Shown here one piece after another: positions 2,377 through 22,980 of a stretch of DNA of 52,951 nucleotides; the first letter of the stretch is position 1; every line of letters starts with the position of its first letter. The DNA is taken from the IMG/VR virus record IMGVR_UViG_3300038660_000404, positions 1 through 52,951 of that record, one strand, 5' to 3'. A model generated the notes under the pieces. The model was not told the origin of the DNA. It saw nothing but the letters and a program-made list of their open reading frames with translations, and searched no databases. This DNA is from a virus. Its lineage: Duplodnaviria > Caudoviricetes. The position numbers were made by a program, and so were the translations under genes.

Positions 2377-2548
2377 GTTTTTTCTCGTGGCTCTGCTTTT
2401 TGATGTTCTCTCACAATGATTTTCTGCAAGCGCGCAGCGATGGCATCGCGGTCTTTCGCTTGCCAACGTCGCCGGTAGAGGTCGCGCTCGAGGATGTCTT
2501 CAGCGTCCTGCTCAAGGCGCTTTTCAAGTCGCGCATTTGTATTGGGGA

Positions 2549-2875
2549 TCATTGCTGGATTTCCTTATCTGCCTGTGGCGCGATCTGGTGCTGCAGTTCA
2601 CCTTCCTCAGAAAGCGTGATGATGATCAGGTCGCTGGGCAGCTGTCGCCAGAGCAAGACGGTTGCCACAGATTCCTCGTTGCCCGAGCGTTCTGCGGTAT
2701 TGCACCATTCCAACACGCGGCCGATTGTGTCGGGCAGATCATCCGGTGCGCGCGCGTTGATTTTTCCGATGACATTGGCAATTTCATCCTCGTGCCAATC
2801 AATACCGATTTCACGGCACCAACTTACGATGTCATTCCACAAATCAGGGGCATCGCGGCGCAAGCTTTTGTTCAT
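2549..2875 (-). CDS. Hypothetical protein
   Basis: ORF with AGGAG RBS in the leftward operon. Confidence 0.6.
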   Translation of the reverse strand: MNKSLRRDAPDLWNDIVSWCREIGIDWHEDEIANVIGKINARAPDDLPDTIGRVLEWCNTAERSGNEESVATVLLWRQLPSDLIIITLSEEGELQHQIAPQADKEIQQ

Positions 2876-2897
2876 GTTTTCTCTCCTTGAAGCGTGA

Positions 2898-3422
2898 TTA
2901 GGCCGGTGACGTGACGGCATCTTCTTTTCCGCGCAGCATGTGGCTGGCGACCAAAATCTTCTCGATCTCCGGCCAATGGTCGCTGGCCTCTATCCACGGG
3001 ACGAGGTGGTCACGGACATAGGTCATCGTGTCGTCCATGAAGGCGGAGAATTCATCCCCGTCCATTGAGGCGAAGCTGATCGACACCGGTCGCGCGACGA
3101 TCGCGATCGCACCCTCCGGGATGTTGTGCCTGGCCCGTTCCGACCGCGTCATATTGCGGTTCCGGGTGCGTCCGGTTGCCACCAGCAGGTCGTCTTTGAT
3201 GTTCTCCGCCGTCCATTCGGCGCTGGTCGGTCCATCGTTCAGGGCCTTGGCCACGTAGGTCAAAAAGGCCCAGAACAGGCGGTGCTGCTTGCCGTTGCGC
3301 GGCCGCGTGGGTTCGATCTTGTAGAGCGCGCCAAACTTGAGCTTCTCGATCGCCAGCTGACCCGCTTTTGAGGATGGGACCAGCATATGGTCAAACCGGT
3401 GCACAAAAAACGCATAAGCCAT
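2898..3422 (-). CDS. DUF1367/NinB-like phage protein
   Basis: RPRN..QHRLFWAFL and SISFASMD..EF motifs; coupled to the upstream ORF. Confidence 0.6.
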   Translation of the reverse strand: MAYAFFVHRFDHMLVPSSKAGQLAIEKLKFGALYKIEPTRPRNGKQHRLFWAFLTYVAKALNDGPTSAEWTAENIKDDLLVATGRTRNRNMTRSERARHNIPEGAIAIVARPVSISFASMDGDEFSAFMDDTMTYVRDHLVPWIEASDHWPEIEKILVASHMLRGKEDAVTSPA

Positions 3423-3616
3423 CACACCAACCCCACTTTTGTCGCAAGCCACTCCGGCAAGGCGACCGTTTTGACACCAGGGTTGTTGGTCGCACTCACC
3501 TCGACCAAGGCGAGGGGCAGCCAGACTGCCGCGTCGCTGTCGCCGGTGTGCACCAGGACCGCGCGCTCCGTGAGGGCGACAATTTCCACGTCGATATAGG
3601 TAAGCGCGTCATTCAT
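3422..3616 (-). CDS. Small hypothetical phage protein
   Basis: 64 aa, TERAVLV...VWLP...LPEWLA..GLV; coupled on both sides. Confidence 0.7.
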   Translation of the reverse strand: MNDALTYIDVEIVALTERAVLVHTGDSDAAVWLPLALVEVSATNNPGVKTVALPEWLATKVGLV

Positions 3617-3849
3617 GATCTTTTGATCCTTTCCCGTGGTGGCATCCGCAGCACCTCGATTGCGCGCGACCTGTGGCGGAGGCGGCGGATGAAGCCGCGC
3701 TCTTCAAGCGCATCGAGCAGGCGATGGATATTGGACTTGCTGGCGACATTCAGGGCGTCGGCCATCTCCTCGAATGAGGGGGCGTATCCGTGTTCTTCAG
3801 TGTATTTTGCGAGGAACACCCAGCAGTCGTTCTGGCGCGGCGTCAGCAT
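3613..3849 (-). CDS. LexA N-terminal DNA-binding-domain-only protein (78 aa)
   Basis: MLTPRQ...GYAPSFEEMADALNVASKSNIHRLLDALEERGFIRR..RSRAIEV matches the alphaproteobacterial LexA winged helix; no peptidase domain; GGAGG RBS. Confidence 0.88.
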   Translation of the reverse strand: MLTPRQNDCWVFLAKYTEEHGYAPSFEEMADALNVASKSNIHRLLDALEERGFIRRLRHRSRAIEVLRMPPRERIKRS

Positions 3850-4229
3850 CGCTCCGCCTCCCGGTCCGGATGGCCCAGCAAGCCGCCGTCTCTGATCCAT
3901 CCGGTCAGGTGCTCCCGGCTGCCAAAGCATCCGCCGGGGGCATAGTTGTGCAGGAACATCGCGTATCCGAACAGGCCCGCGCGGTTTGGGTCGTCTGCCC
4001 GGCGGCAGGCCTCGAAATAGTCGCCCACAATGATCGCCTGAATGAACGATCCGGGCCGCACGCCCAAAAGGACATACCGCACCATGCCCGCGTGCATGTG
4101 ACGTGGGAGCCATCGGTCCAGCCCTGTGCCCCATTCCGAGCGGGTGATCCGATCGTAGGTGCCCGCTGGGTCAGCCTCAATGTCCAAGGCGATCTGGTGG
4201 CGGTCGATCTCTTGCGTCTGTGCCGTCAT
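3843..4229 (-). CDS. Hypothetical phage protein
   Basis: 128 aa ORF coupled to both neighbours. Confidence 0.7.
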   Translation of the reverse strand: MTAQTQEIDRHQIALDIEADPAGTYDRITRSEWGTGLDRWLPRHMHAGMVRYVLLGVRPGSFIQAIIVGDYFEACRRADDPNRAGLFGYAMFLHNYAPGGCFGSREHLTGWIRDGGLLGHPDREAERC

Positions 4230-5380
4230 GCTCCACCCCTCCCAGCATTGGTCGCAGCGATGTTGATGTCAGCCTGTGCCTGCTCCGAGAGCGTCGCGAT
4301 CTGGTCCTGCCAAAGCGACATGACGGCGTCGGCGGCGTCTGCGCTGTCGGCTTCCGCCAGATCGGACATGATCCGCGCAATTAAGCCCGCCGATGCTTCC
4401 TCGGCCATGTCGCGCTCTGCCGTCTTGGGGTCTGGCTTCTTCTCGGGCAGGGGCTTCTGTTCGGCCGCCGCTGGCTTGGCCTGCTTTTGGACTGGCGTCG
4501 GCTCTTCCTCGCCCTTCGCATCGTCCGCCTTCTCATCCGCGCCCTGATCCGCGTCCAACTCAGTGGCCTCACCATCGATCGTGCGGTTGTCCTCGTCGTC
4601 CGGGGTCGCGTCGAGCTGCTCGGCCGGGTTTATCGCGAAGGCCGCGAAGTCCGCCTTGCCGCCGTCGACCGTCAGCGCATCGCGGAATTCCACCGAGAGC
4701 GGCAGGTATTTCGCCAGTGCCCGGATGGCGGTCTTTTTCGCCATCTCGTCTTCATGGCTTTTCCACGGGTTGCGATCCGTCGCGCCAAACTTCACGGCCG
4801 TCTGCCAGCCCTGCGACCCATCCCTGATCTTCATGACTTTGGCCCAAGGCAGGACCACGTAGGCGTGCCCGCCGTCGCGGAATTTGGCGATGGCGTAGGC
4901 GTGGCGCTTGTCGCCCTCCTGTGCGCCGGGGATATGGCGCAGCCGCGCTTCGGTGCCTTCCTCGTATTCCCAGACCTCGTCGTCAGAATAGTGGATGTTG
5001 GCGGAGATCGACGTGATGTGTCCGGACCGGCGCGCAAGATCGATCAGGCCCTTATAGCCGACGACCAGCTGGACCTCGGTGATCTTTTTACGGTTGTTCC
5101 TAAACGGGATCAGATAGGCGTGGCCCATGATCGTGTTCGGCTCCAGCCCGAGCCCCGCACAGGTCATCAGCCCGCCGAGTAAGCTCATGGGATCGCATTC
5201 GCCCAGTTTCGGGGTGGTCCGGATCGCGTTCGCCATCAGCCGCATCATCCGCTCGGGCTTCATATGCGCCGCCGCGACCTGCTGCAGCTGGGTCTTGGCG
5301 GCGTCGTTCCACAGCAGCTCCTTGACGTTGGTTACCTGCGTCAGCGGCTTGGTTTTGATCTTCTCAATAGCGGTGATCAC
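4226..5380 (-). CDS. recT: RecT family single-strand annealing protein
   Basis: GLEP...GHAYLIPF, GYKGLIDLARRSG, EMAKKTAIRALAKYLPLS. Confidence 0.93.
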   Translation of the reverse strand: MITAIEKIKTKPLTQVTNVKELLWNDAAKTQLQQVAAAHMKPERMMRLMANAIRTTPKLGECDPMSLLGGLMTCAGLGLEPNTIMGHAYLIPFRNNRKKITEVQLVVGYKGLIDLARRSGHITSISANIHYSDDEVWEYEEGTEARLRHIPGAQEGDKRHAYAIAKFRDGGHAYVVLPWAKVMKIRDGSQGWQTAVKFGATDRNPWKSHEDEMAKKTAIRALAKYLPLSVEFRDALTVDGGKADFAAFAINPAEQLDATPDDEDNRTIDGEATELDADQGADEKADDAKGEEEPTPVQKQAKPAAAEQKPLPEKKPDPKTAERDMAEEASAGLIARIMSDLAEADSADAADAVMSLWQDQIATLSEQAQADINIAATNAGRGGA

Positions 5381-14015: not shown

Positions 14016-14154
14016 TAAGCGCCCAGAGGCCCACGTCCACAGCGCCACGGAGCGGGCCGTAGAGAGCGGACAGCACGCGCTTTACCAGGACCTTAACGCC
14101 AGGCCAAAGGCGGGCCACAGCAAGCCTCTGCGCACCTCGTAGACCCCACCCCTT

Positions 14155-14220
14155 GGGTCCCCTCCGGAGAGGGCTGACGTGCGGGGCCGCCGCTGCGCGG
14201 TATTTGCGTGTTTTTATTTC
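14155..14220 (+). other. Predicted lambda-like cos site (cosQ-cosN)
   Basis: GGGTCC at 14155, then GCG|GGGCCGCCGCTG|CGC at 14181-14198, paralleling lambda GGGTCCT...ACG|GGGCGGCGACCT|CGC; AT tract follows. Confidence 0.65.
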
Positions 14221-14233
14221 TTTCAAATATCCG

Positions 14234-15544
14234 ATGGAGTTTGTTTTGCCCCCAAGTTCAGATGCCCCTTCCGGTCGACTTGATGCTGCCCGCTGGCCTG
14301 CCTCGAAGATTGAGATGTGGCCGGTTGCAGACCTCACGCCCTACGTCAAAAATGCCCGCACGCATCCTCAAGAGCAGGTTGATCAGATCGCGGCGTCGAT
14401 GGAGCGGTTCGGCTTTACGATCCCGATGCTTGTCGCTGAGAACGGCACGATCATCGCTGGCCACGGACGGCTGATGGCTGCGGCGCAGCTTGGCATGGCC
14501 GAGGTCCCGGTGATGGTGGCGCGGGGCTGGTCTGATGAGGACCGGCGGTTTTACACGCTGGCTGACAACCGGCTGGCGGAGACGTCGGAGTGGGACCCGG
14601 AGACGCTGCAGGTTGAGTGGGATGAGTTGAACGCGCTCGGGCTTGGCGATGATCTGTCGATGATCGGGTTCTCCGATGAGGACCTGAAGGACATTCTGCC
14701 TGCCGCGCTGCTTGAGGTGACGGGCGGTCTGACGGACCCGGATGATGTGCCGGAGGTCGACGAGGCCCAGCCGATCAGCCAGCCCGGCGATGTCTGGATC
14801 CTCGGCAAGCACCGGCTGCTCTGCGGCGATAGCACTGTGGCCACCGATGTGGAAAAGGTGCTGGGCGATGTGACGCCGCTGCTGATGTGCACAGATCCAC
14901 CCTACGGAGTTGAGTACGACCCGAGCTGGCGCAACCAGGTGGGGGCGGCCAAGACCAAACGTACCGGCAAGGTGCTGAATGATGATCGGGCCGATTGGCG
15001 CGAAGCCTGGGCGCTGTTTCCGGGTGACGTGGCCTATGTCTGGCATGGCGCGCTGCACGCAGGAGAGGTCGCGGAAAGCCTAGAGGCGGCTGGCTTCACG
15101 ATCCGCTCGCAGATCATCTGGGCCAAGGAGCGGCTGGTGCTCAGCCGGGGCGATTATCACTGGCAACATGAGCCGGCCTGGTACGCTGTCAAAAAGACCG
15201 GCAAGGGTCACTGGGCGGGCGATCGCAAGCAGACGACGCTGTGGCAAATCCCCAGCAAGGATCAGGATGCCAAGACGGTACACGGAACACAAAAGCCGGT
15301 CGAATGCATGCGTCGGCCGATCGAGAACAACTCGAGCCCCGGACAGGCGGTTTATGAGCCCTTCATGGGCTCAGGGACCACGCTGATCGCAGCGGAAATG
15401 TCAGGACGCGTCTGCTTCGGCATCGAGTTGAACCCGGCTTACGTCGATGTGGCGGTGGAGAGGTGGCAGAACTTCACCGGCGAGGACGCCGTTCTGTCCG
15501 GCTCGGACGAGACCTTCAACAAAATTAAGAACAAAGACGATTGA
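14234..15544 (+). CDS. ParB-N / N6-N4 DNA methyltransferase (beta class)
   Basis: ParB-like IIAGHGRL...ADNRL; TDPPYG before YEPFMGSGTT; HGTQKPV; start uncertain. Confidence 0.92.
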   Translation: MEFVLPPSSDAPSGRLDAARWPASKIEMWPVADLTPYVKNARTHPQEQVDQIAASMERFGFTIPMLVAENGTIIAGHGRLMAAAQLGMAEVPVMVARGWSDEDRRFYTLADNRLAETSEWDPETLQVEWDELNALGLGDDLSMIGFSDEDLKDILPAALLEVTGGLTDPDDVPEVDEAQPISQPGDVWILGKHRLLCGDSTVATDVEKVLGDVTPLLMCTDPPYGVEYDPSWRNQVGAAKTKRTGKVLNDDRADWREAWALFPGDVAYVWHGALHAGEVAESLEAAGFTIRSQIIWAKERLVLSRGDYHWQHEPAWYAVKKTGKGHWAGDRKQTTLWQIPSKDQDAKTVHGTQKPVECMRRPIENNSSPGQAVYEPFMGSGTTLIAAEMSGRVCFGIELNPAYVDVAVERWQNFTGEDAVLSGSDETFNKIKNKDD

Positions 15545-15547
15545 GGC

Positions 15548-16729
15548 ATGAATGACCTGGCTTTACATCCCTCCGGACGCGTTTCCGGATCCCCAGACGC
15601 TTGCCTCTTCGGCCTCTCGCTGTGCTCCGGTGCAGGCGGGCTCGACCTCGGGCTCACCATCGCCATCCCTGGATATCGAACTTTGGGCTATGTCGAACGG
15701 GAGACCTACGCCGCAGCCACTCTCGTGGCGCGGATGGAAGACGCGGCCTTGGATCAAGCGGTTGTCTGGGACGACGTTGGAACCTTCGACGGCCGACCGT
15801 GGCGCGGCGTGGTGGATATCCTCTCGGCCGGGTACCCTTGCCAGCCATTTTCGGTCGCGGGCAAACGGCTCGGCACCGAGGACCCGCGCCACCTCTGGCC
15901 GCATGTCGCGCGCATCATCGGTGAATGCGAGCCGCCCTTCGTGTTCCTCGAGAATGTCGCCCATCATCTCCGCCTCGGCTTCCCCGAAGTCGCCAGCGGA
16001 CTGGTCAGCATGGGCTACAAACTTGCGGCAGGCCTCTTTACGGCGGCGGAAGTCGGTGCGCCGCACAAACGCGAGCGGCTGTTCATCCTTGCCATCCGCG
16101 AGGGGGACGCGCTGGCCGACCCCGCGCGCCTGCTCTGGGACCCGGTCGAGTGGCGGCAACCGGACGGAGATGATGCGGCTCTGGCCGACGCCCCGCGCCA
16201 GCGCCAACGAGAACCGGCAGACGAAACCGACGCCGTCGCAAGAAGCGGGCAAGCATGGGATGAACTTGGCAACGACGGCCGCGATGTGGCCCACGCCGCA
16301 AACCGACAGCTTTCGGAGCCGGGGCGGAGACCGAAAGCACGAGAAGGGTCTGGACAGTATGGCGCGGGATTGGCCGACGCCCATGGCGAACGACGGCAAC
16401 AAGCCGAGCGCGGGCAACCGCAAGACGGCGGATCTGACCCATGCCAGCCGCCTGTGGATGACGCCGACGGCGCGGGATCACAAGGACGGCGCGACGACAT
16501 TGGCGAACACGCCGGTGAACGGCCTGCTTGGCCGCCAAGTCCTGGTGATGAAGGTGGCTGGGAGCGATACCTCCGATGCGCGCCGGACCTTGAACCCAGC
16601 ATTCGTCGAGGCGCTGATGGGCTGGCCCACCGGGTGGACCGGCTTCGCCTCTGTGGCAACGGTGTGGTCCCCTTGGTTGCAGCGCATGCGCTGCGAACTT
16701 TGGCGGCTGAACTGCTGGCCGATAGATGA
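15548..16729 (+). CDS. C5 cytosine DNA methyltransferase, catalytic polypeptide lacking motif IX
   Basis: Motifs I (LCSGAGG), IV (GYPCQPFS), VI (LENV), VIII (PHKRERLF), X (CGNGVVP). Confidence 0.9.
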   Translation: MNDLALHPSGRVSGSPDACLFGLSLCSGAGGLDLGLTIAIPGYRTLGYVERETYAAATLVARMEDAALDQAVVWDDVGTFDGRPWRGVVDILSAGYPCQPFSVAGKRLGTEDPRHLWPHVARIIGECEPPFVFLENVAHHLRLGFPEVASGLVSMGYKLAAGLFTAAEVGAPHKRERLFILAIREGDALADPARLLWDPVEWRQPDGDDAALADAPRQRQREPADETDAVARSGQAWDELGNDGRDVAHAANRQLSEPGRRPKAREGSGQYGAGLADAHGERRQQAERGQPQDGGSDPCQPPVDDADGAGSQGRRDDIGEHAGERPAWPPSPGDEGGWERYLRCAPDLEPSIRRGADGLAHRVDRLRLCGNGVVPLVAAHALRTLAAELLADR

Positions 16730-16742
16730 GGAGGTTGGCTGA
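15552..16742 (+). CDS. Overlapping +1-frame polypeptide with WPTP repeats and C5-MTase motif IX
   Basis: 396 aa open frame; five W(P/M)TP repeats; RRTLNPAFVEALMGWPTGWT; GAGG 5 nt before its ATG. Confidence 0.75.
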   Translation: MTWLYIPPDAFPDPQTLASSASRCAPVQAGSTSGSPSPSLDIELWAMSNGRPTPQPLSWRGWKTRPWIKRLSGTTLEPSTADRGAAWWISSRPGTLASHFRSRANGSAPRTRATSGRMSRASSVNASRPSCSSRMSPIISASASPKSPADWSAWATNLRQASLRRRKSVRRTNASGCSSLPSARGTRWPTPRACSGTRSSGGNRTEMMRLWPTPRASANENRQTKPTPSQEAGKHGMNLATTAAMWPTPQTDSFRSRGGDRKHEKGLDSMARDWPTPMANDGNKPSAGNRKTADLTHASRLWMTPTARDHKDGATTLANTPVNGLLGRQVLVMKVAGSDTSDARRTLNPAFVEALMGWPTGWTGFASVATVWSPWLQRMRCELWRLNCWPIDEEVG

Positions 16743-16772: not shown

Positions 16773-17084
16773 TCAAGGTTGCCAATCGCTCCGACGGCCA
16801 TGCCGGACATGGAGCACCTGCACGACCCCGTCGATTACGGAATAGTAAATCCGCCAACGGGTCGCCCGCCCATAAAGCGCACGACGGACAGCCAAGTCGA
16901 AATCCTGCGATTCAGGGGCCCTCGGATGTGCTTCCGGCATGGCCCCAAGCGCGAGGATCAAATTCCGGATGCCCGCACGCCATTCGTCCGCAGCCCTCGG
17001 GTTGCGGTCGCGCAGCCAGACCCATGATGCTGTCAGATCATCCGCCGCATTCGGCGTGATGATCACCGGCAGCGGTGCGGTCAT
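16773..17084 (-). CDS. RelE/ParE family toxin
   Basis: VIITPNAADDL...WRIYY...VQVLHVRHGRR; overlaps the antitoxin stop. Confidence 0.88.
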   Translation of the reverse strand: MTAPLPVIITPNAADDLTASWVWLRDRNPRAADEWRAGIRNLILALGAMPEAHPRAPESQDFDLAVRRALYGRATRWRIYYSVIDGVVQVLHVRHGRRSDWQP

Positions 17085-17356
17085 TTCGTCAGTTTGAGTT
17101 CATCAAAGAAACGGCCAGCCTCCGTGCCTTCACCGGCCAGTGCCTGCGTCAGACCCTTGCGGATGCCTGCGACGGTCTCGGCATAGTCAAGCTGGTCCTG
17201 CATCTCCTGCCACGCGGCAGCATCCATCACAACGACGGAGGGCTTGCCATTGACGGTCAGGATCTGCGGCCGTCCGCTTTCCTTGATATGCGCGATCATG
17301 CGCGCCGAATCCCGCTTGAACTCGGTCAGCGGGCTGATGTCTTTGGTGATGTTCAT
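17081..17356 (-). CDS. Phd/YefM family antitoxin
   Basis: DISPLTEFKR...PQILTVNGKPSVVVMD; GGAGG RBS. Confidence 0.9.
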   Translation of the reverse strand: MNITKDISPLTEFKRDSARMIAHIKESGRPQILTVNGKPSVVVMDAAAWQEMQDQLDYAETVAGIRKGLTQALAGEGTEAGRFFDELKLTK

Positions 17357-17370
17357 GGCTGGCCTCCCGA

Positions 17371-17415
17371 CGCGCATCTAATTCGGTGCGAATATAGCGT
17401 TAATTTAGATGCACG
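17371..17415. promoter_or_regulatory. Inverted repeat, likely TA operator
   Basis: CGCGCATCTAA...TTAGATGCACG (10/11 match) upstream of the antitoxin. Confidence 0.6.
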
Positions 17416-19463: not shown

Positions 19464-19967
19464 ATGGCAGACGAGGGAGAAAAGCCGAGGGGCAACATTG
19501 TTACGGTCACTCAGGCCGCTGCTCTTTGCGGCCGCAGCACGCAGTGGGTCCACCAGCTGGCAAAGGGCGGCTACATCACCAAAGAGGGGCACGGCAGCTA
19601 CACCCTGGTGTCGCTCGTGCGGGGCGTGATCGCCTATTACGAGGACCTTCAGTCCAAGAACAGCAAGACGGCCTCCGCCAGCCGCGCGACGGACGCACGG
19701 ACGCGCGAGATTGAGCTGCGGATCAAGGAGCGCAGCCGGGAGCTGATCCCGATCGAAGATGCGCGGGCAGAAATCGCTGACTGGACCTCCGCTTTCCGTG
19801 CTGAGCTTCAAGGCCTTGCCGCTCGGTTCACGCGCGACATGCAGGAGCGCCGCAGGCTTGAGCAGGAAATAGATGGCGCACTCGAACGACTTTCTCGGCG
19901 GACCAGCGAAGCAGAGCAGGCTCTCGCGTCTGGTGAAGGAGCTGTTGCGGCCGAGCCAGAAGCGTGA
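19464..19967 (+). CDS. Terminase small subunit (Nu1-like)
   Basis: N-terminal winged HTH plus coiled coil; overlaps the terL start. Confidence 0.82.
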   Translation: MADEGEKPRGNIVTVTQAAALCGRSTQWVHQLAKGGYITKEGHGSYTLVSLVRGVIAYYEDLQSKNSKTASASRATDARTREIELRIKERSRELIPIEDARAEIADWTSAFRAELQGLAARFTRDMQERRRLEQEIDGALERLSRRTSEAEQALASGEGAVAAEPEA

Positions 19968-22900
19968 TCCGGCGGACTGGGCCGCCGACAACCGCGTCTA
20001 TCCGGAGACGGCGGGCATCCCAGGCCCGCGTGACCCATGGCTGACGCCGTATATGATCCCGTGGTCCTCGGCGGTTCATCGGGGTGGTTATCGCCGCATC
20101 GTGGCTGTGACCTCGGCGCAGTCGGGCAAGACCGACAGCATGCTCGACATCATCGGGGCCCGGCTTGACCAGCGTCCAGCGCCGATCATCTACGTCGGCC
20201 CGACCAAAGAGTTTCTCACGGACCAATTCGAGCCCCGCCTGATGGGTCTGCTTGATGAGGCCGAGAGCCTGAAGAACAAGGTCATGCGCGGGCGGCGCAT
20301 GAAAAAGACCCTCAAGCATGTGGCTGGCGTTCGCGTTCGCCTTGCGCATGCAGGTTCGTCCTCGGCCCTGAAATCAGACCCGGCCGCACTCGCCCTGATC
20401 GACGAGTTTGACGAGATGATGGCGAACGTCAGGGGCCAAGGCGACGTGCTCGGGCTCGTGGAGGCCCGTGGCGAGACCTACGCCGACTTCGTGACCGCGA
20501 TCACCAGCACACCAGCGAGAGGTCTTGTGGAAATCGAGTTGAACGATGATAGCGGGCTTGAGTTTTGGTCGCGATCCGAACCGGCTGATTTGGAAAGCCC
20601 GATCTGGAAGCTGTTTCAGGAGGGCACGCGGCATCACTGGGCGTGGCCCTGCAAGCACTGCTCGGAATACTTCATCCCGCGCTTCAAGCAGCTGCACTGG
20701 CCGGACCGGGCGACACCTTCGGTGGCCAAGCGATCGGCTTCGCTGTTCTGCCCACGCTGCGGCGGGATCCACACCGAAGAGGACAAGGCATGGATGAATG
20801 CTCGGGGTGCAATGGTGGCACCCGGGCAGAGTGTTGAGCTGCGCAACGACGCCCCGCACGTAACAGGTGCGCCAGAGGACAACTCGACCCTGTCAATGTG
20901 GACCTCGGGCCTGTGCTCGCCCTTCGTGTCATGGGGCCAGCGGGCAGAGACCTATCTGACAGCGCTGCAATCGGGCGATCACGACCGCATCCAGACGGCG
21001 ATGAACGCCAGCTTCGGCGAATGCTACGCCATGATGGCTTCGGGAGACGTGCCGGAATGGCAGGAAATCATGGAGCGGCGGCTGCCGTATCAGCCCGGGC
21101 AGGTCCCTTTGGGCGGCCTGCGAGTGGTGATGGGCGTCGACGTGCAGAAGTTCAGCCTTGTCTATGTGATCCGGGCTTTTGGGGCTCGGGGATCGTCGTG
21201 GATGGTTGATAACGGCCAGCTATATGGCCCCACCGAGGACGATGATGTCTGGTCCGCACTGGCCGATCTTATGTTGCAGCCGATTGGCGGAATGCAGATC
21301 GAAAAGGTGTTCATCGACAGTGGCTTCCGGCCTGACAAGCCGGAGCAAGGCAACGAGCACAAGGTCTACGAGTTCTGCCGCCGCTACAGCTGGCTGTGCT
21401 CCCCGACCAAGGGCAAGGATATCCAGAGCCCGCCCTACAAGGTCTCGAAGATCGAGGTCAAACCGGACGGCAAGCGGGCGCTTTACTCGATCGACCTCGT
21501 GACGCTGTCGTCGGACTTTTTCAAGTCGCTGGTGATCTCGCGCATCCGCACGCCCATGGACGTGCCGGGTGCTTTCTATGTCCACGAACAGGTCTCAGAA
21601 GATTATTGCAGGCAATTGACCTCGGAGGCCCGGGTGGTCGTGGAGGGCAAGCCGGTCTGGGTGAAGCGCAGCCGGAACAACCATTTCCTCGATTGTTTCG
21701 ACCCCGAGACCGAGCTTCTGACCGAAGATGGCTGGATGCGTGTCGAGGACGCGGTTTCTTACGTGGGCCGCTTCGCAACGGTCAATCTGGACAGCGATGT
21801 GATCGAGTATCAGGGCGCGACCAAATCAGTCTCGCGCTGGCATTCGGGTGAGATGGTCCAGATCAAAGGTCGGGCAGTGGACCTTCTTGTGACGCCTAAC
21901 CACCGGATGGTGACGCAGCGCAGGAACCCTGTGGACAATACCCCTCGCATAACTTTGGCGAAGGATTTGACCATTTGGCACACGCTCAAACGGTCCTCGA
22001 ATTGGGTAGGTGAGCGACACGATGTCGTGACCCTGCCTGAGTTATCACTCAAGGCGACCAATTGGCGAGAGTTGAGTGAGCCAGAGCGATCTTTCAATGC
22101 CGGAGACTGGTGTGAGTTTCTTGGCTGGTACATCTGCGGCGGGCATACCACCCACCAAGGCAACTATGCCAGGGTTGTTATCTCGCAGGGCCCTGGTGAA
22201 AAGGCAGACCGCATTGCGGCTCTGCTTGATCGGATGGGGCTCGAATATAGCATCCATGGTGGGCGACAGTTCGTCATTTCATCGCGGCAGATCGCGGCGG
22301 CATTGGCTGACTGTGCAGGCGAGGATGGTCGTTGCTACTCTAGGCGCGTTCCGGGTTTTGTCCGACGTGCGAGCAGCGACCTGATCGACCGGTTCCTTGA
22401 TGCCGCCATCCTAGGCGATGGGTGGGTTCAGAATGGGTATCGTGCCTATGCGACGGTCAGCGCCAAGCTGGCTGACGATATGCAGGAGCTTTTTATCAAG
22501 GCCGGACGGAGCGCAAATATCATCCGACGCGATGCCAAGCCTTACTCCATCAACGGACGGACCTCGCCCAACACAGTCGACCAGTATCACGTCTCTGAAA
22601 TTCGTGCGCCTGCCGCCTCGTTGCGTCGAGCAGATAACGCTCCGATTTTCAGAAACGTCGCCTACTCTGGGATGGTGTATTGCGTGACCGTGCCAAACGG
22701 AACGCTGATAGCGCGCCGAAATGGCAAGGCCATCATAGTTGGCAACTGCGAGGCGCTTTGCGCAGCCATCGGCTACGCATTCAACGTTCAGCGGATCCCG
22801 GAAGGCATCGAGCGCAAGACTTCCATCGAGGCGGCGGTGCCCGAGGGGCATGACCAGAAACTGGCACCGATGTCAGACCCACCAGATACGTCGTTGGTCT

Positions 22901-22980
22901 CGCAATCGCCCAAGCTGCGTAACGGCAGCGGCGCTCTGCGCAGGCGATTTGCACGCCAAGGCAGCCGGTTGAACAGGTAA
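19873..22980 (+). CDS. Terminase large subunit (lambda GpA family), intein-containing
   Basis: SAQSGKT Walker A, LIDEFD Walker B, STP, CxxC/CxxC, GVDVQ, IDSG, NHFLD-C. Confidence 0.95.
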   Translation: MAHSNDFLGGPAKQSRLSRLVKELLRPSQKRDPADWAADNRVYPETAGIPGPRDPWLTPYMIPWSSAVHRGGYRRIVAVTSAQSGKTDSMLDIIGARLDQRPAPIIYVGPTKEFLTDQFEPRLMGLLDEAESLKNKVMRGRRMKKTLKHVAGVRVRLAHAGSSSALKSDPAALALIDEFDEMMANVRGQGDVLGLVEARGETYADFVTAITSTPARGLVEIELNDDSGLEFWSRSEPADLESPIWKLFQEGTRHHWAWPCKHCSEYFIPRFKQLHWPDRATPSVAKRSASLFCPRCGGIHTEEDKAWMNARGAMVAPGQSVELRNDAPHVTGAPEDNSTLSMWTSGLCSPFVSWGQRAETYLTALQSGDHDRIQTAMNASFGECYAMMASGDVPEWQEIMERRLPYQPGQVPLGGLRVVMGVDVQKFSLVYVIRAFGARGSSWMVDNGQLYGPTEDDDVWSALADLMLQPIGGMQIEKVFIDSGFRPDKPEQGNEHKVYEFCRRYSWLCSPTKGKDIQSPPYKVSKIEVKPDGKRALYSIDLVTLSSDFFKSLVISRIRTPMDVPGAFYVHEQVSEDYCRQLTSEARVVVEGKPVWVKRSRNNHFLDCFDPETELLTEDGWMRVEDAVSYVGRFATVNLDSDVIEYQGATKSVSRWHSGEMVQIKGRAVDLLVTPNHRMVTQRRNPVDNTPRITLAKDLTIWHTLKRSSNWVGERHDVVTLPELSLKATNWRELSEPERSFNAGDWCEFLGWYICGGHTTHQGNYARVVISQGPGEKADRIAALLDRMGLEYSIHGGRQFVISSRQIAAALADCAGEDGRCYSRRVPGFVRRASSDLIDRFLDAAILGDGWVQNGYRAYATVSAKLADDMQELFIKAGRSANIIRRDAKPYSINGRTSPNTVDQYHVSEIRAPAASLRRADNAPIFRNVAYSGMVYCVTVPNGTLIARRNGKAIIVGNCEALCAAIGYAFNVQRIPEGIERKTSIEAAVPEGHDQKLAPMSDPPDTSLVSQSPKLRNGSGALRRRFARQGSRLNR
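21694..22746 (+). mobile_element. Intein (351 aa) with LAGLIDADG-type endonuclease domain
   Basis: Starts CFDPETELLTEDGW, block B VTPNH, block F VYCVTVP, ends IVGN with +1 Cys; motifs FLGWYICGG and FLDAAILGDG. Confidence 0.92.

Follow-up and report, generated by a model that had tools for sequence, protein, structure and literature searches.

The question raised by this locus is how a phage methyltransferase gene comes to be readable from end to end in two frames at once, and which parts of the enzyme each of these frames encodes. The locus lies in a provirus of the class Caudoviricetes, IMG/VR record IMGVR_UViG_3300038660_000404, whose 52,951 bases (completeness rating 92%) were analysed as a whole and are referred to here as the window. 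On its plus strand, frame A is an open reading frame (ORF) of 393 codons (15548 to 16729) with a catalytic core, an unconstrained linker and a C-terminal motif X, and frame B, which is +1 relative to A, is an ORF of 396 codons (15552 to 16742) with an unconstrained leader, five cassettes, a motif IX and a C-terminal helix; the ORF list and the sequence confirm the observation, made in an initial annotation of this DNA, that the two, with starts separated by 4 nt, overlap from end to end. In our view the gene probably specifies, through two fully overlapping frames, a two-chain DNA (cytosine-5) methyltransferase, translated from twin starts as an alpha chain (frame A) and a beta chain (frame B); in such an enzyme both chains would be made from the 5′ start codons, alpha would bind beta, and both would be needed for methylation.

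The catalytic part is encoded by frame A, in which residues 23–188, and only these, match PF00145 (expectation value, E, 9e-32). This match contains the glycines G28 and G31, the PCQ at residues 97–99 (15836 to 15844), the ENV at 135–137 (15950 to 15958) and the HKRER at 173–177 (16064 to 16078), which we take to be motifs I, IV, VI and VIII, respectively, and G28, G31, P97-C98-Q99, E135-N136, R175 and R177 are invariant across 51 A-family sequences. Frame A therefore has the motifs (I, IV, VI, VIII) and the PF00145 match of a C5 methyltransferase core. When modelled alone, residues 21–198 of frame A are predicted with a predicted local distance difference test (pLDDT) score of 82–98, and Foldseek places the model closest to M.HaeIII (1dct_A, E 3e-13) and also to M.HhaI, over a range of E 1e-12 to 3e-13. 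Motif X is found at the other end of the same frame, in a C-terminal module at 16628 to 16726 (pLDDT 82–94 over its helix), where GNGVVP occupies A residues 370–375 (16655 to 16672), with G370 and N371 invariant in the 51 A-family proteins. Between motifs VIII and X, frame A has neither a recognition domain nor motif IX; its residues 199–327 (129 residues) are modelled at a pLDDT of ~30, and the homologous parts are found in frame B. The suggestion that frame A lacks exactly these parts and that frame B supplies them is supported by the homology and by the pattern of selection set out below.

The middle of frame B has five W(P/M)TP cassettes at 16113 to 16544, each beginning where the initial annotation had placed it: c1 at 16113 to 16181 (23 residues), c2 at 16182 to 16286 (35), c3 at 16287 to 16370 (28), c4 at 16371 to 16454 (28) and c5 from 16455. 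The five differ from one another, and among close relatives they are lost as whole units, c2 in 4 loci and c3 in 5 (9 of 80 in all), with L033 and L061 as natural forms without c2 and without c3, and in two proteins (P0040 and P0044) a c2-like unit precedes a c1-like unit, the reverse of the order in the window. Downstream of the cassettes is the motif IX-like segment RRTLNPAFVEALMGWPTGWT (B residues 344–363, 16581 to 16640), the start of which, RRTLNPAFVEALMGWP at 16581, had also been recognised in the initial annotation; its L347 and N348 are invariant among 83 B-family proteins. Of 80 viral loci, 55 yielded a motif IX-like string (LNPxFxExLMGxPxGW), which 53 of them carry in the +1 frame and two (L141 and L156) in frame 0, and a looser pattern adds +1-frame strings in five further loci.

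What these parts do is indicated by relatives in which they stand in the same frame as the core. The single-chain phage enzymes, gp76 of Mycobacterium phage Rita and the product of viral locus L156, like M.HhaI and M.HaeIII as solved models, have the same catalytic core, but with all parts in one frame and the +1 frame closed. Rita gp76 shares the PTP-type repeats, an LxPxFxEWxMGxPxGW string and GNGVVP; it matches frame A at both ends (E 1e-37), and the middle of frame B aligns with its in-frame PTP repeats and LAPAFSEWMMGWPAGW string (E 2e-5). In L156 the motif IX-like string and GNGVVP align with residues 273–312 of M.HhaI (the string with 273–290), presumably the region of motifs IX and X, in a second and weak segment of a match with E 1e-20. 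Sequence comparison thus marks the B-coded part as a homologue of the recognition region and motif IX that single-chain enzymes carry in frame. Motif IX of this subfamily is out of reach of Pfam, whose matches to Rita gp76 and L156 themselves end at profile positions 166–198.

This homology also bears on whether the frame B protein has a separate job, for example in DNA binding or regulation, and merely shares its DNA with a methyltransferase. Frame B has no Pfam family at E ≤ 1 and no NCBIfam match, and alone it folds with low confidence (mean pLDDT 57), which speaks for this view, but the part of it under selection has its homologues in the recognition region and motif IX of single-chain enzymes, frame A is without exactly those parts, and PHROGs groups B-like proteins with DNA methyltransferases (phrog_1008, E 8e-19). 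We consider a separate job quite improbable. Relatives of frame B are numerous: a word-indexed search gave 831, and an exhaustive one gave 7,500 cluster representatives at E ≤ 0.001, of which 2,822 reach E ≤ 1e-10 and 219 reach E ≤ 1e-30. Some of these will be single-chain enzymes matching the cassette region. The only match of the B-family profile among solved structures, to the MS2 coat protein (~28 residues, E 2e-4), which falls in the leader at 15750 to 15830, was judged to be chance, since this stretch is an unconstrained off-frame reading of the catalytic domain.

Which of the two frames is under selection at each point can be read from a genome sample of 80 loci from many alphaproteobacterial genera, found with a frame A query at 77–88% identity, across which both frames align end to end. 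Site-by-site comparison was made on the 55 of 81 sequences (window included) that have exactly 393 and 396 codons, 44 of them unique, with the other 26 loci left out. Diversity among the 44 peaks at A's third codon position over codons 21–190 and again over 361–392, and at B's third position over codons 191–330 and 351–360, with codons 331–350 mixed. Mean pairwise amino-acid identity follows the same division: in the N-terminal part it is 0.924 for A, 0.814 for B and 0.800 for the closed third frame, and in the middle it is 0.754, 0.937 and 0.758, respectively. The ratio of non-synonymous to synonymous substitution rates (dN/dS), calculated on 200 random pairs, is 0.15 for A, 1.78 for B and 3.09 for the control frame in the N-terminal part, 3.22, 0.11 and 2.47 in the middle, and 0.07, 0.62 and 6.4 in the C-terminal part. 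Purifying selection is thus applied in the order A, B, A, acting on the core (motifs I–VIII) through A, on the cassettes and motif IX through B, and on motif X through A once more. Since their identity and dN/dS values are near those of a closed frame, B's first 187 residues and A's residues ~190–330 are not conserved as protein. The feature boundaries agree with this, the A-selected stretch being residues 21–188 (15608 to 16111), supported by third-position diversity, dN/dS, pLDDT and Foldseek, and the linker being residues ~189–330 (16112 to 16537), which is open yet not conserved as protein. At the far end, a helix of frame B (residues 372–387, 16665 to 16712; pLDDT ~85) overlaps motif X of frame A, and, given the B value of 0.62 against a control value of 6.4, both frames may be under constraint over the 30 C-terminal codons.

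If these off-frame stretches are not conserved as protein, are they nevertheless kept open? The third frame of the window stretch has 13 stops. When the B-coded middle of the window by itself is shuffled synonymously, 3.1 stops are expected in A, against 0 seen (P 0.012), and over the N-terminal part the openness of B is not significant (~1.1 stops expected beyond the fixed TGA before B's ATG); the openness test was therefore made on the family. Both frames are full length in 74 of the 80 genome loci. The viral sample was blind to frame B, its 80 loci having been found with an alignment of the catalytic domain only (41–92% identity, 42–71% GC content), and frame B is stop-free over the catalytic domain in 74 of them, comprising 50 of the 53 with a +1 motif IX string and 24 of the 27 others. 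The third frame is stop-free in none of the 53 (mean 6.5 stops), and L156, the one clear single-frame gene, has 8 stops in its +1 frame over the catalytic core. Across the 53 loci, synonymous shuffling predicts 108.8 stops in B over the N-terminal part, where 3 were seen, and 171.4 in A over the middle, where 18 were seen, all in four loci (L098, L133, L150 and L162), such that 49 of 53 are stop-free. With the loci grouped into 18 clusters by single linkage (75% nucleotide identity) and each cluster represented once, Fisher's method gives P 3.8e-7 for B over the N-terminal part and 1.9e-10 for A over the middle.

These counts also address the simplest explanation of the layout, that a single-chain gene has decayed or been mis-sequenced, with two compensating indels and off-frames left open through high GC content. 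The GC content of the two-frame region (64–69%) and the unremarkable openness of B's N-terminal part in the window alone would suit such an account, but the layout recurs in 74 of 80 independent genome assemblies and in viral loci spanning 46–71% GC, the third frame is always closed, and each segment is under strong purifying selection. Because the layout is conserved, decay or artefact is excluded as far as these data go, and we find it hardly credible.

The two frames also share their beginning. At 15542 to 15554 the sequence TGA GGC ATG A ATG forms a twin start, with A's ATG at 15548, B's at 15552 and the TGA at 15542 to 15544, the stop of the upstream gene, 3 nt 5′ of A's ATG. All 78 genome loci that retain 5′ context have NTGNATG at this point with a TGA 1–4 nt upstream, and the viral loci have paired A and B starts at most 5 nt apart in 48 of 53, at an offset of +4 in 30, −2 in 12 and −5 in 6. 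On sequence evidence, start codons twinned within 5 nt characterise the family, and both the open frames and the twin start are kept by selection across distant phages. The initial annotation further held that a GAGG (15543 to 15546) favours frame B; its spacing does (5 nt to B's ATG against 1 nt to A's), but the GAGG is not conserved in relatives. The clade of the window has in addition a 22-residue N-terminal extension of frame A (residues 1–22, 15548 to 15613), the opening of which, MNDLALH, resembles the MNELALF that in other clades leads directly into motif I, and this extension may be a relic of an ancestral twin start.

Twin starts need not mean that both are used, and beta could instead begin at an internal codon near the cassettes, with the long B leader never translated. 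M.EcoHK31I, a two-chain enzyme discussed below, sets a precedent, since its beta chain can use internal methionines and much of its N-terminus is reported to be dispensable (PMC2836561). In three lower-GC phages the B ORF itself begins inside A, and all 44 close sequences have ATGs at B residues 47 and 135. The second of these was examined as a conserved internal start and rejected: it is a by-product of the Asn codon of the ENV motif, which is AAT in 13 viral loci and AAC in 16, the same usage as at other Asn codons, and it is not preferred in the family. Apart from the twin start, no B-frame start is conserved for its own sake among the viral loci. An internal start would also give no reason for B to be open back to the start of A, as it is in 74 of 80 viral loci and down to 46% GC, nor for an ATG paired with that of A, and we regard it as unlikely.

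The order of the selected segments, A, B, A, is that of a single-chain enzyme such as Rita gp76, which raises the alternative of a single polypeptide made through two programmed frameshifts, +1 near 16100 and −1 near 16640, so as to read core, recognition domain, motif IX and motif X in canonical order. The window has a GGGGG run at 16102 to 16106 that could act as a slippery site, but the run is found in a minority of the 44 relatives and was rejected in this role, being unconserved. It falls in the A-to-B hand-over (16097 to 16112), ~5 freely varying codons that no other part of the gene matches in variability (34 versions in the 44 unique sequences), and the B-to-A hand-over is nearly invariant; no conserved slippery site was found at the frame hand-over. 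Database proteins that switch frame do exist, but the nine examined (P0005, P0015, P0016, P0021, P0025, P0097, P0098, P0108 and P0119) do so each at a different place, a scatter that fits indels or assembly errors, and none of them goes back to frame A for motif X. As frameshifting would, moreover, leave no reason to maintain open off-frame stretches or a second start codon, it appears very unlikely. Two chains made from twin starts would explain the A, B, A order of selection, the open off-frame stretches, the paired starts and the lack of a conserved shift site together.

Whether two such chains could assemble was addressed by structure prediction. Modelled alone, most of the frame B leader is below a pLDDT of 50, the motif IX helix is at ~92 and the C-terminal helix at ~85, and the model as a whole was too uncertain for a fold search. 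For the complex, the whole of A was combined with B residues 183–396 and compared with three controls; the two products are predicted to bind, with an interaction prediction score from aligned errors (ipSAE) of 0.89 against 0.20 for the best control, a mark attained by 116 of 157 solved complexes and by 2 of 215 mismatched pairs. The runs share at least 66% of contacts, with a pLDDT of the partner of at least 49. B residues 297–310 and 329–387 are predicted to meet A residues 29–39, 57–67, 166–175 and 325–383, and within this interface the C-terminal helix of B contacts A residues 37–38 and 376–383. The heterodimer proposed in the initial annotation is in this respect consistent with the models.

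A number of observations weigh against the two-chain reading. An unconstrained leader of 187 residues, together with a spacer of ~140 that is equally free to vary, is wasteful and unusual, and in a single sequence, the window, the openness of B over the N-terminal part is not significant. The B-family profile identifies no methyltransferase among solved structures by sequence. The complex may have passed because A and B are the halves of a one-chain fold that has often been solved, so that the score could stem from resemblance to C5 methyltransferases solved as single chains, and the fold of the partner itself is uncertain (pLDDT below 50 in a run). In Paenibacillus phage Tadhana, fecal phage MT838482 and Microcystis phage Mae-JY24, the three lower-GC phages mentioned above, the B ORF begins 47–68 codons inside A, and the shared 5′ start is for this reason not universal. 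Lastly, six genome loci have a broken or cut frame: a B stop at codon 61 with A cut by the contig end (L026), a B stop at codon 273 (L032), a 1.3-kb insertion (L035), an A stop at codon 252 (L037), altered ends (L055) and a contig end (L057). The insertion in L035 (Oceaniglobus ichthyenteri, 2501 to 5069), of ~1.3 kb, splits the gene at about codon 330, and both frames resume beyond it. Among the three lower-GC phages (L086, L087 and L088), the nested ORF lies at 585 to 1328 in L088 and at 534 to 1502 in L086.

The two-frame layout is found in named phages, including Burkholderia phi1026b, Synechococcus Yong-M2-251, Komagataeibacter phiKX1, in which frame B is annotated in part only, and Acidovorax Alfacinha1, in which frame B is the one annotated as a methyltransferase. 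It is present also in Microcystis Mae-JY24 and MT838482, and in Paenibacillus Tadhana (L087; 374 to 1444 and 576 to 1280) both overlapping coding sequences are annotated as DNA methyltransferase. In general, annotation gives a name to frame A only, with frame B entries unnamed or termed ‘hypothetical protein’, and the expectation that annotation would overlook frame B is borne out. In phi1026b (L001, 1490 to 3610), frame B continues without a stop into an annotated ParB-like gene to give one ORF of 706 residues, and the recognition chain of this phage may be fused to a ParB-like protein.

Two-polypeptide C5 methyltransferases are known, and M.EcoHK31I of Escherichia coli (recognising YGGCCR; Lee, Kam and Shaw 1995) is the closest precedent. 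Both of its chains are reported to be needed, and beta, which holds motif IX, is nested in another frame of the alpha gene (PMC2836561, PMC3404938), in agreement with what the initial annotation had stated. As in the window, the second chain lies wholly within another frame of the main gene and carries motif IX, and part of the N-terminus of beta is described as dispensable. Unlike the phage gene, the predicted recognition domain of M.EcoHK31I stays in alpha, beta supplying motif IX only, whereas here the whole recognition region and motif IX are in the nested frame, the ORFs are nearly co-extensive (393 and 396 codons) and there is a twin start; the comparison is one of published descriptions. 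The layout is, on the best reading, an extended form of that of M.EcoHK31I.

M.AquI (recognising CYCGRG) is the other two-subunit enzyme, with a natural split reported in the variable region (PMC3404938). Five of the 53 viral relatives (L098, L133, L144, L150 and L162) have a frame A that ends shortly after motif VIII and before motif IX, and in L098 GNGVVPQ, the motif X string, is in frame B. These relatives resemble the split of M.AquI into motifs I–VIII and IX–X, as far as the latter is described, with L098 showing the M.AquI arrangement in full, and they are a second, M.AquI-like version of the layout. Unlike M.AquI, motif X of the window is in frame A, and the B ORF of the split relatives still extends back to the start of A. 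In the literature outside subscription journals and the REBASE notes, these two split enzymes are known, and no description of the layout as a phage family was found.

A further comparison concerns the cassettes. The multispecific C5 methyltransferases of temperate Bacillus phages (SPR, H2 and their kin) are single chains with tandem recognition domains, the targets of which have been assigned experimentally. Like them, the B-frame family has several short tandem units in the variable region, which are here lost or reordered as units, but there is no sequence likeness to Bacillus phage records: a tblastn search of the cassette region against 50,697 phage records matched 9, none from a Bacillus phage. 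The anatomy of the cassettes is thus the one line of evidence that would point to a multispecific enzyme.

Taken as a mechanism, the two-chain reading would run as follows. Translation would begin at either of the two ATGs 4 nt apart, by ribosomes that come from the methyltransferase gene upstream or that bind at this very site. The alpha chain would comprise the S-adenosylmethionine-binding and catalytic large domain (motifs I, IV, VI and VIII), a spacer of ~140 residues without sequence constraint and the motif X helix, which would pack back onto the large domain; beta would comprise the 187-residue unconstrained leader, the five WPTP cassettes in the slot of the target-recognition domain, motif IX and the C-terminal helix. 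Alpha and beta would then assemble into the usual two-domain enzyme, and each frame would be ‘coding’ where the other is merely ‘kept open’. The initial interpretation stands in so far as the sequence data argue for a two-frame gene, a division of the parts between frames and selection on openness, and binding of the chains is predicted. Its further elaboration, an obligate heterodimer with a stoichiometry set by the twin start, in which exchangeable WPTP cassettes would each add one target and their swaps would re-tool protection against host restriction, we put forward tentatively, as a possibility that we are inclined to doubt.

In the prophage, genes with PHROGs assignments run from a serine-recombinase integrase through RecT-like, exonuclease and RuvC-like recombination genes to a fusion of a ParB-N-like domain with an N6/N4 DNA methyltransferase (14153 to 15544, plus strand; PF01555, E 5e-20; phrog_498, E 4e-144), the ParB_N match of which is below the Pfam cut-off. 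The two-frame gene follows, then an opposite-strand toxin–antitoxin-like pair, terminase, portal, protease, major head, baseplate, sheath and tape-measure genes. Because the fusion gene adjoins the twin start, the prophage has two methyltransferases in tandem, which are probably translationally coupled. No restriction enzyme gene was found among the neighbours covered by the PHROGs scan, and the methyltransferase therefore looks like an orphan, which may act against host restriction.

Two other observations were made in this neighbourhood. Directly downstream is a small overlapping gene pair on the minus strand (16773 to 17084 and 17081 to 17377), one member of which matches an antitoxin PHROG (phrog_2268, E 7e-7), and the pair looks like a toxin–antitoxin module between the methyltransferase and the packaging genes. 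The large terminase ORF (19873 to 22980, plus strand) is 1,035 residues long, with its terminase match spanning residues 13–609; residues 606–711 have a weak match to a PHROG labelled thymidylate synthase (E 6e-10), and ~320 further residues are without explanation.

Should both chains indeed be produced, the annotation of a large family of phage and prophage cytosine methyltransferases is wrong, and their targets cannot be predicted from the annotated protein alone, because reading of the DNA target falls to an ORF that is unnamed or dropped; routine annotation half misses the layout. As a clean natural example of dual coding from end to end, with sequence selected in one frame and openness alone in the other, the gene can also serve to test gene finders and models of how overlapping genes evolve. 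If the reading as a heterodimer with exchangeable cassettes is true, its ~390 codons readable in two frames would be among the longest conserved dual-coding stretches known in phage, and the cassette structure offers a testable route by which phages may change their methylation specificity.

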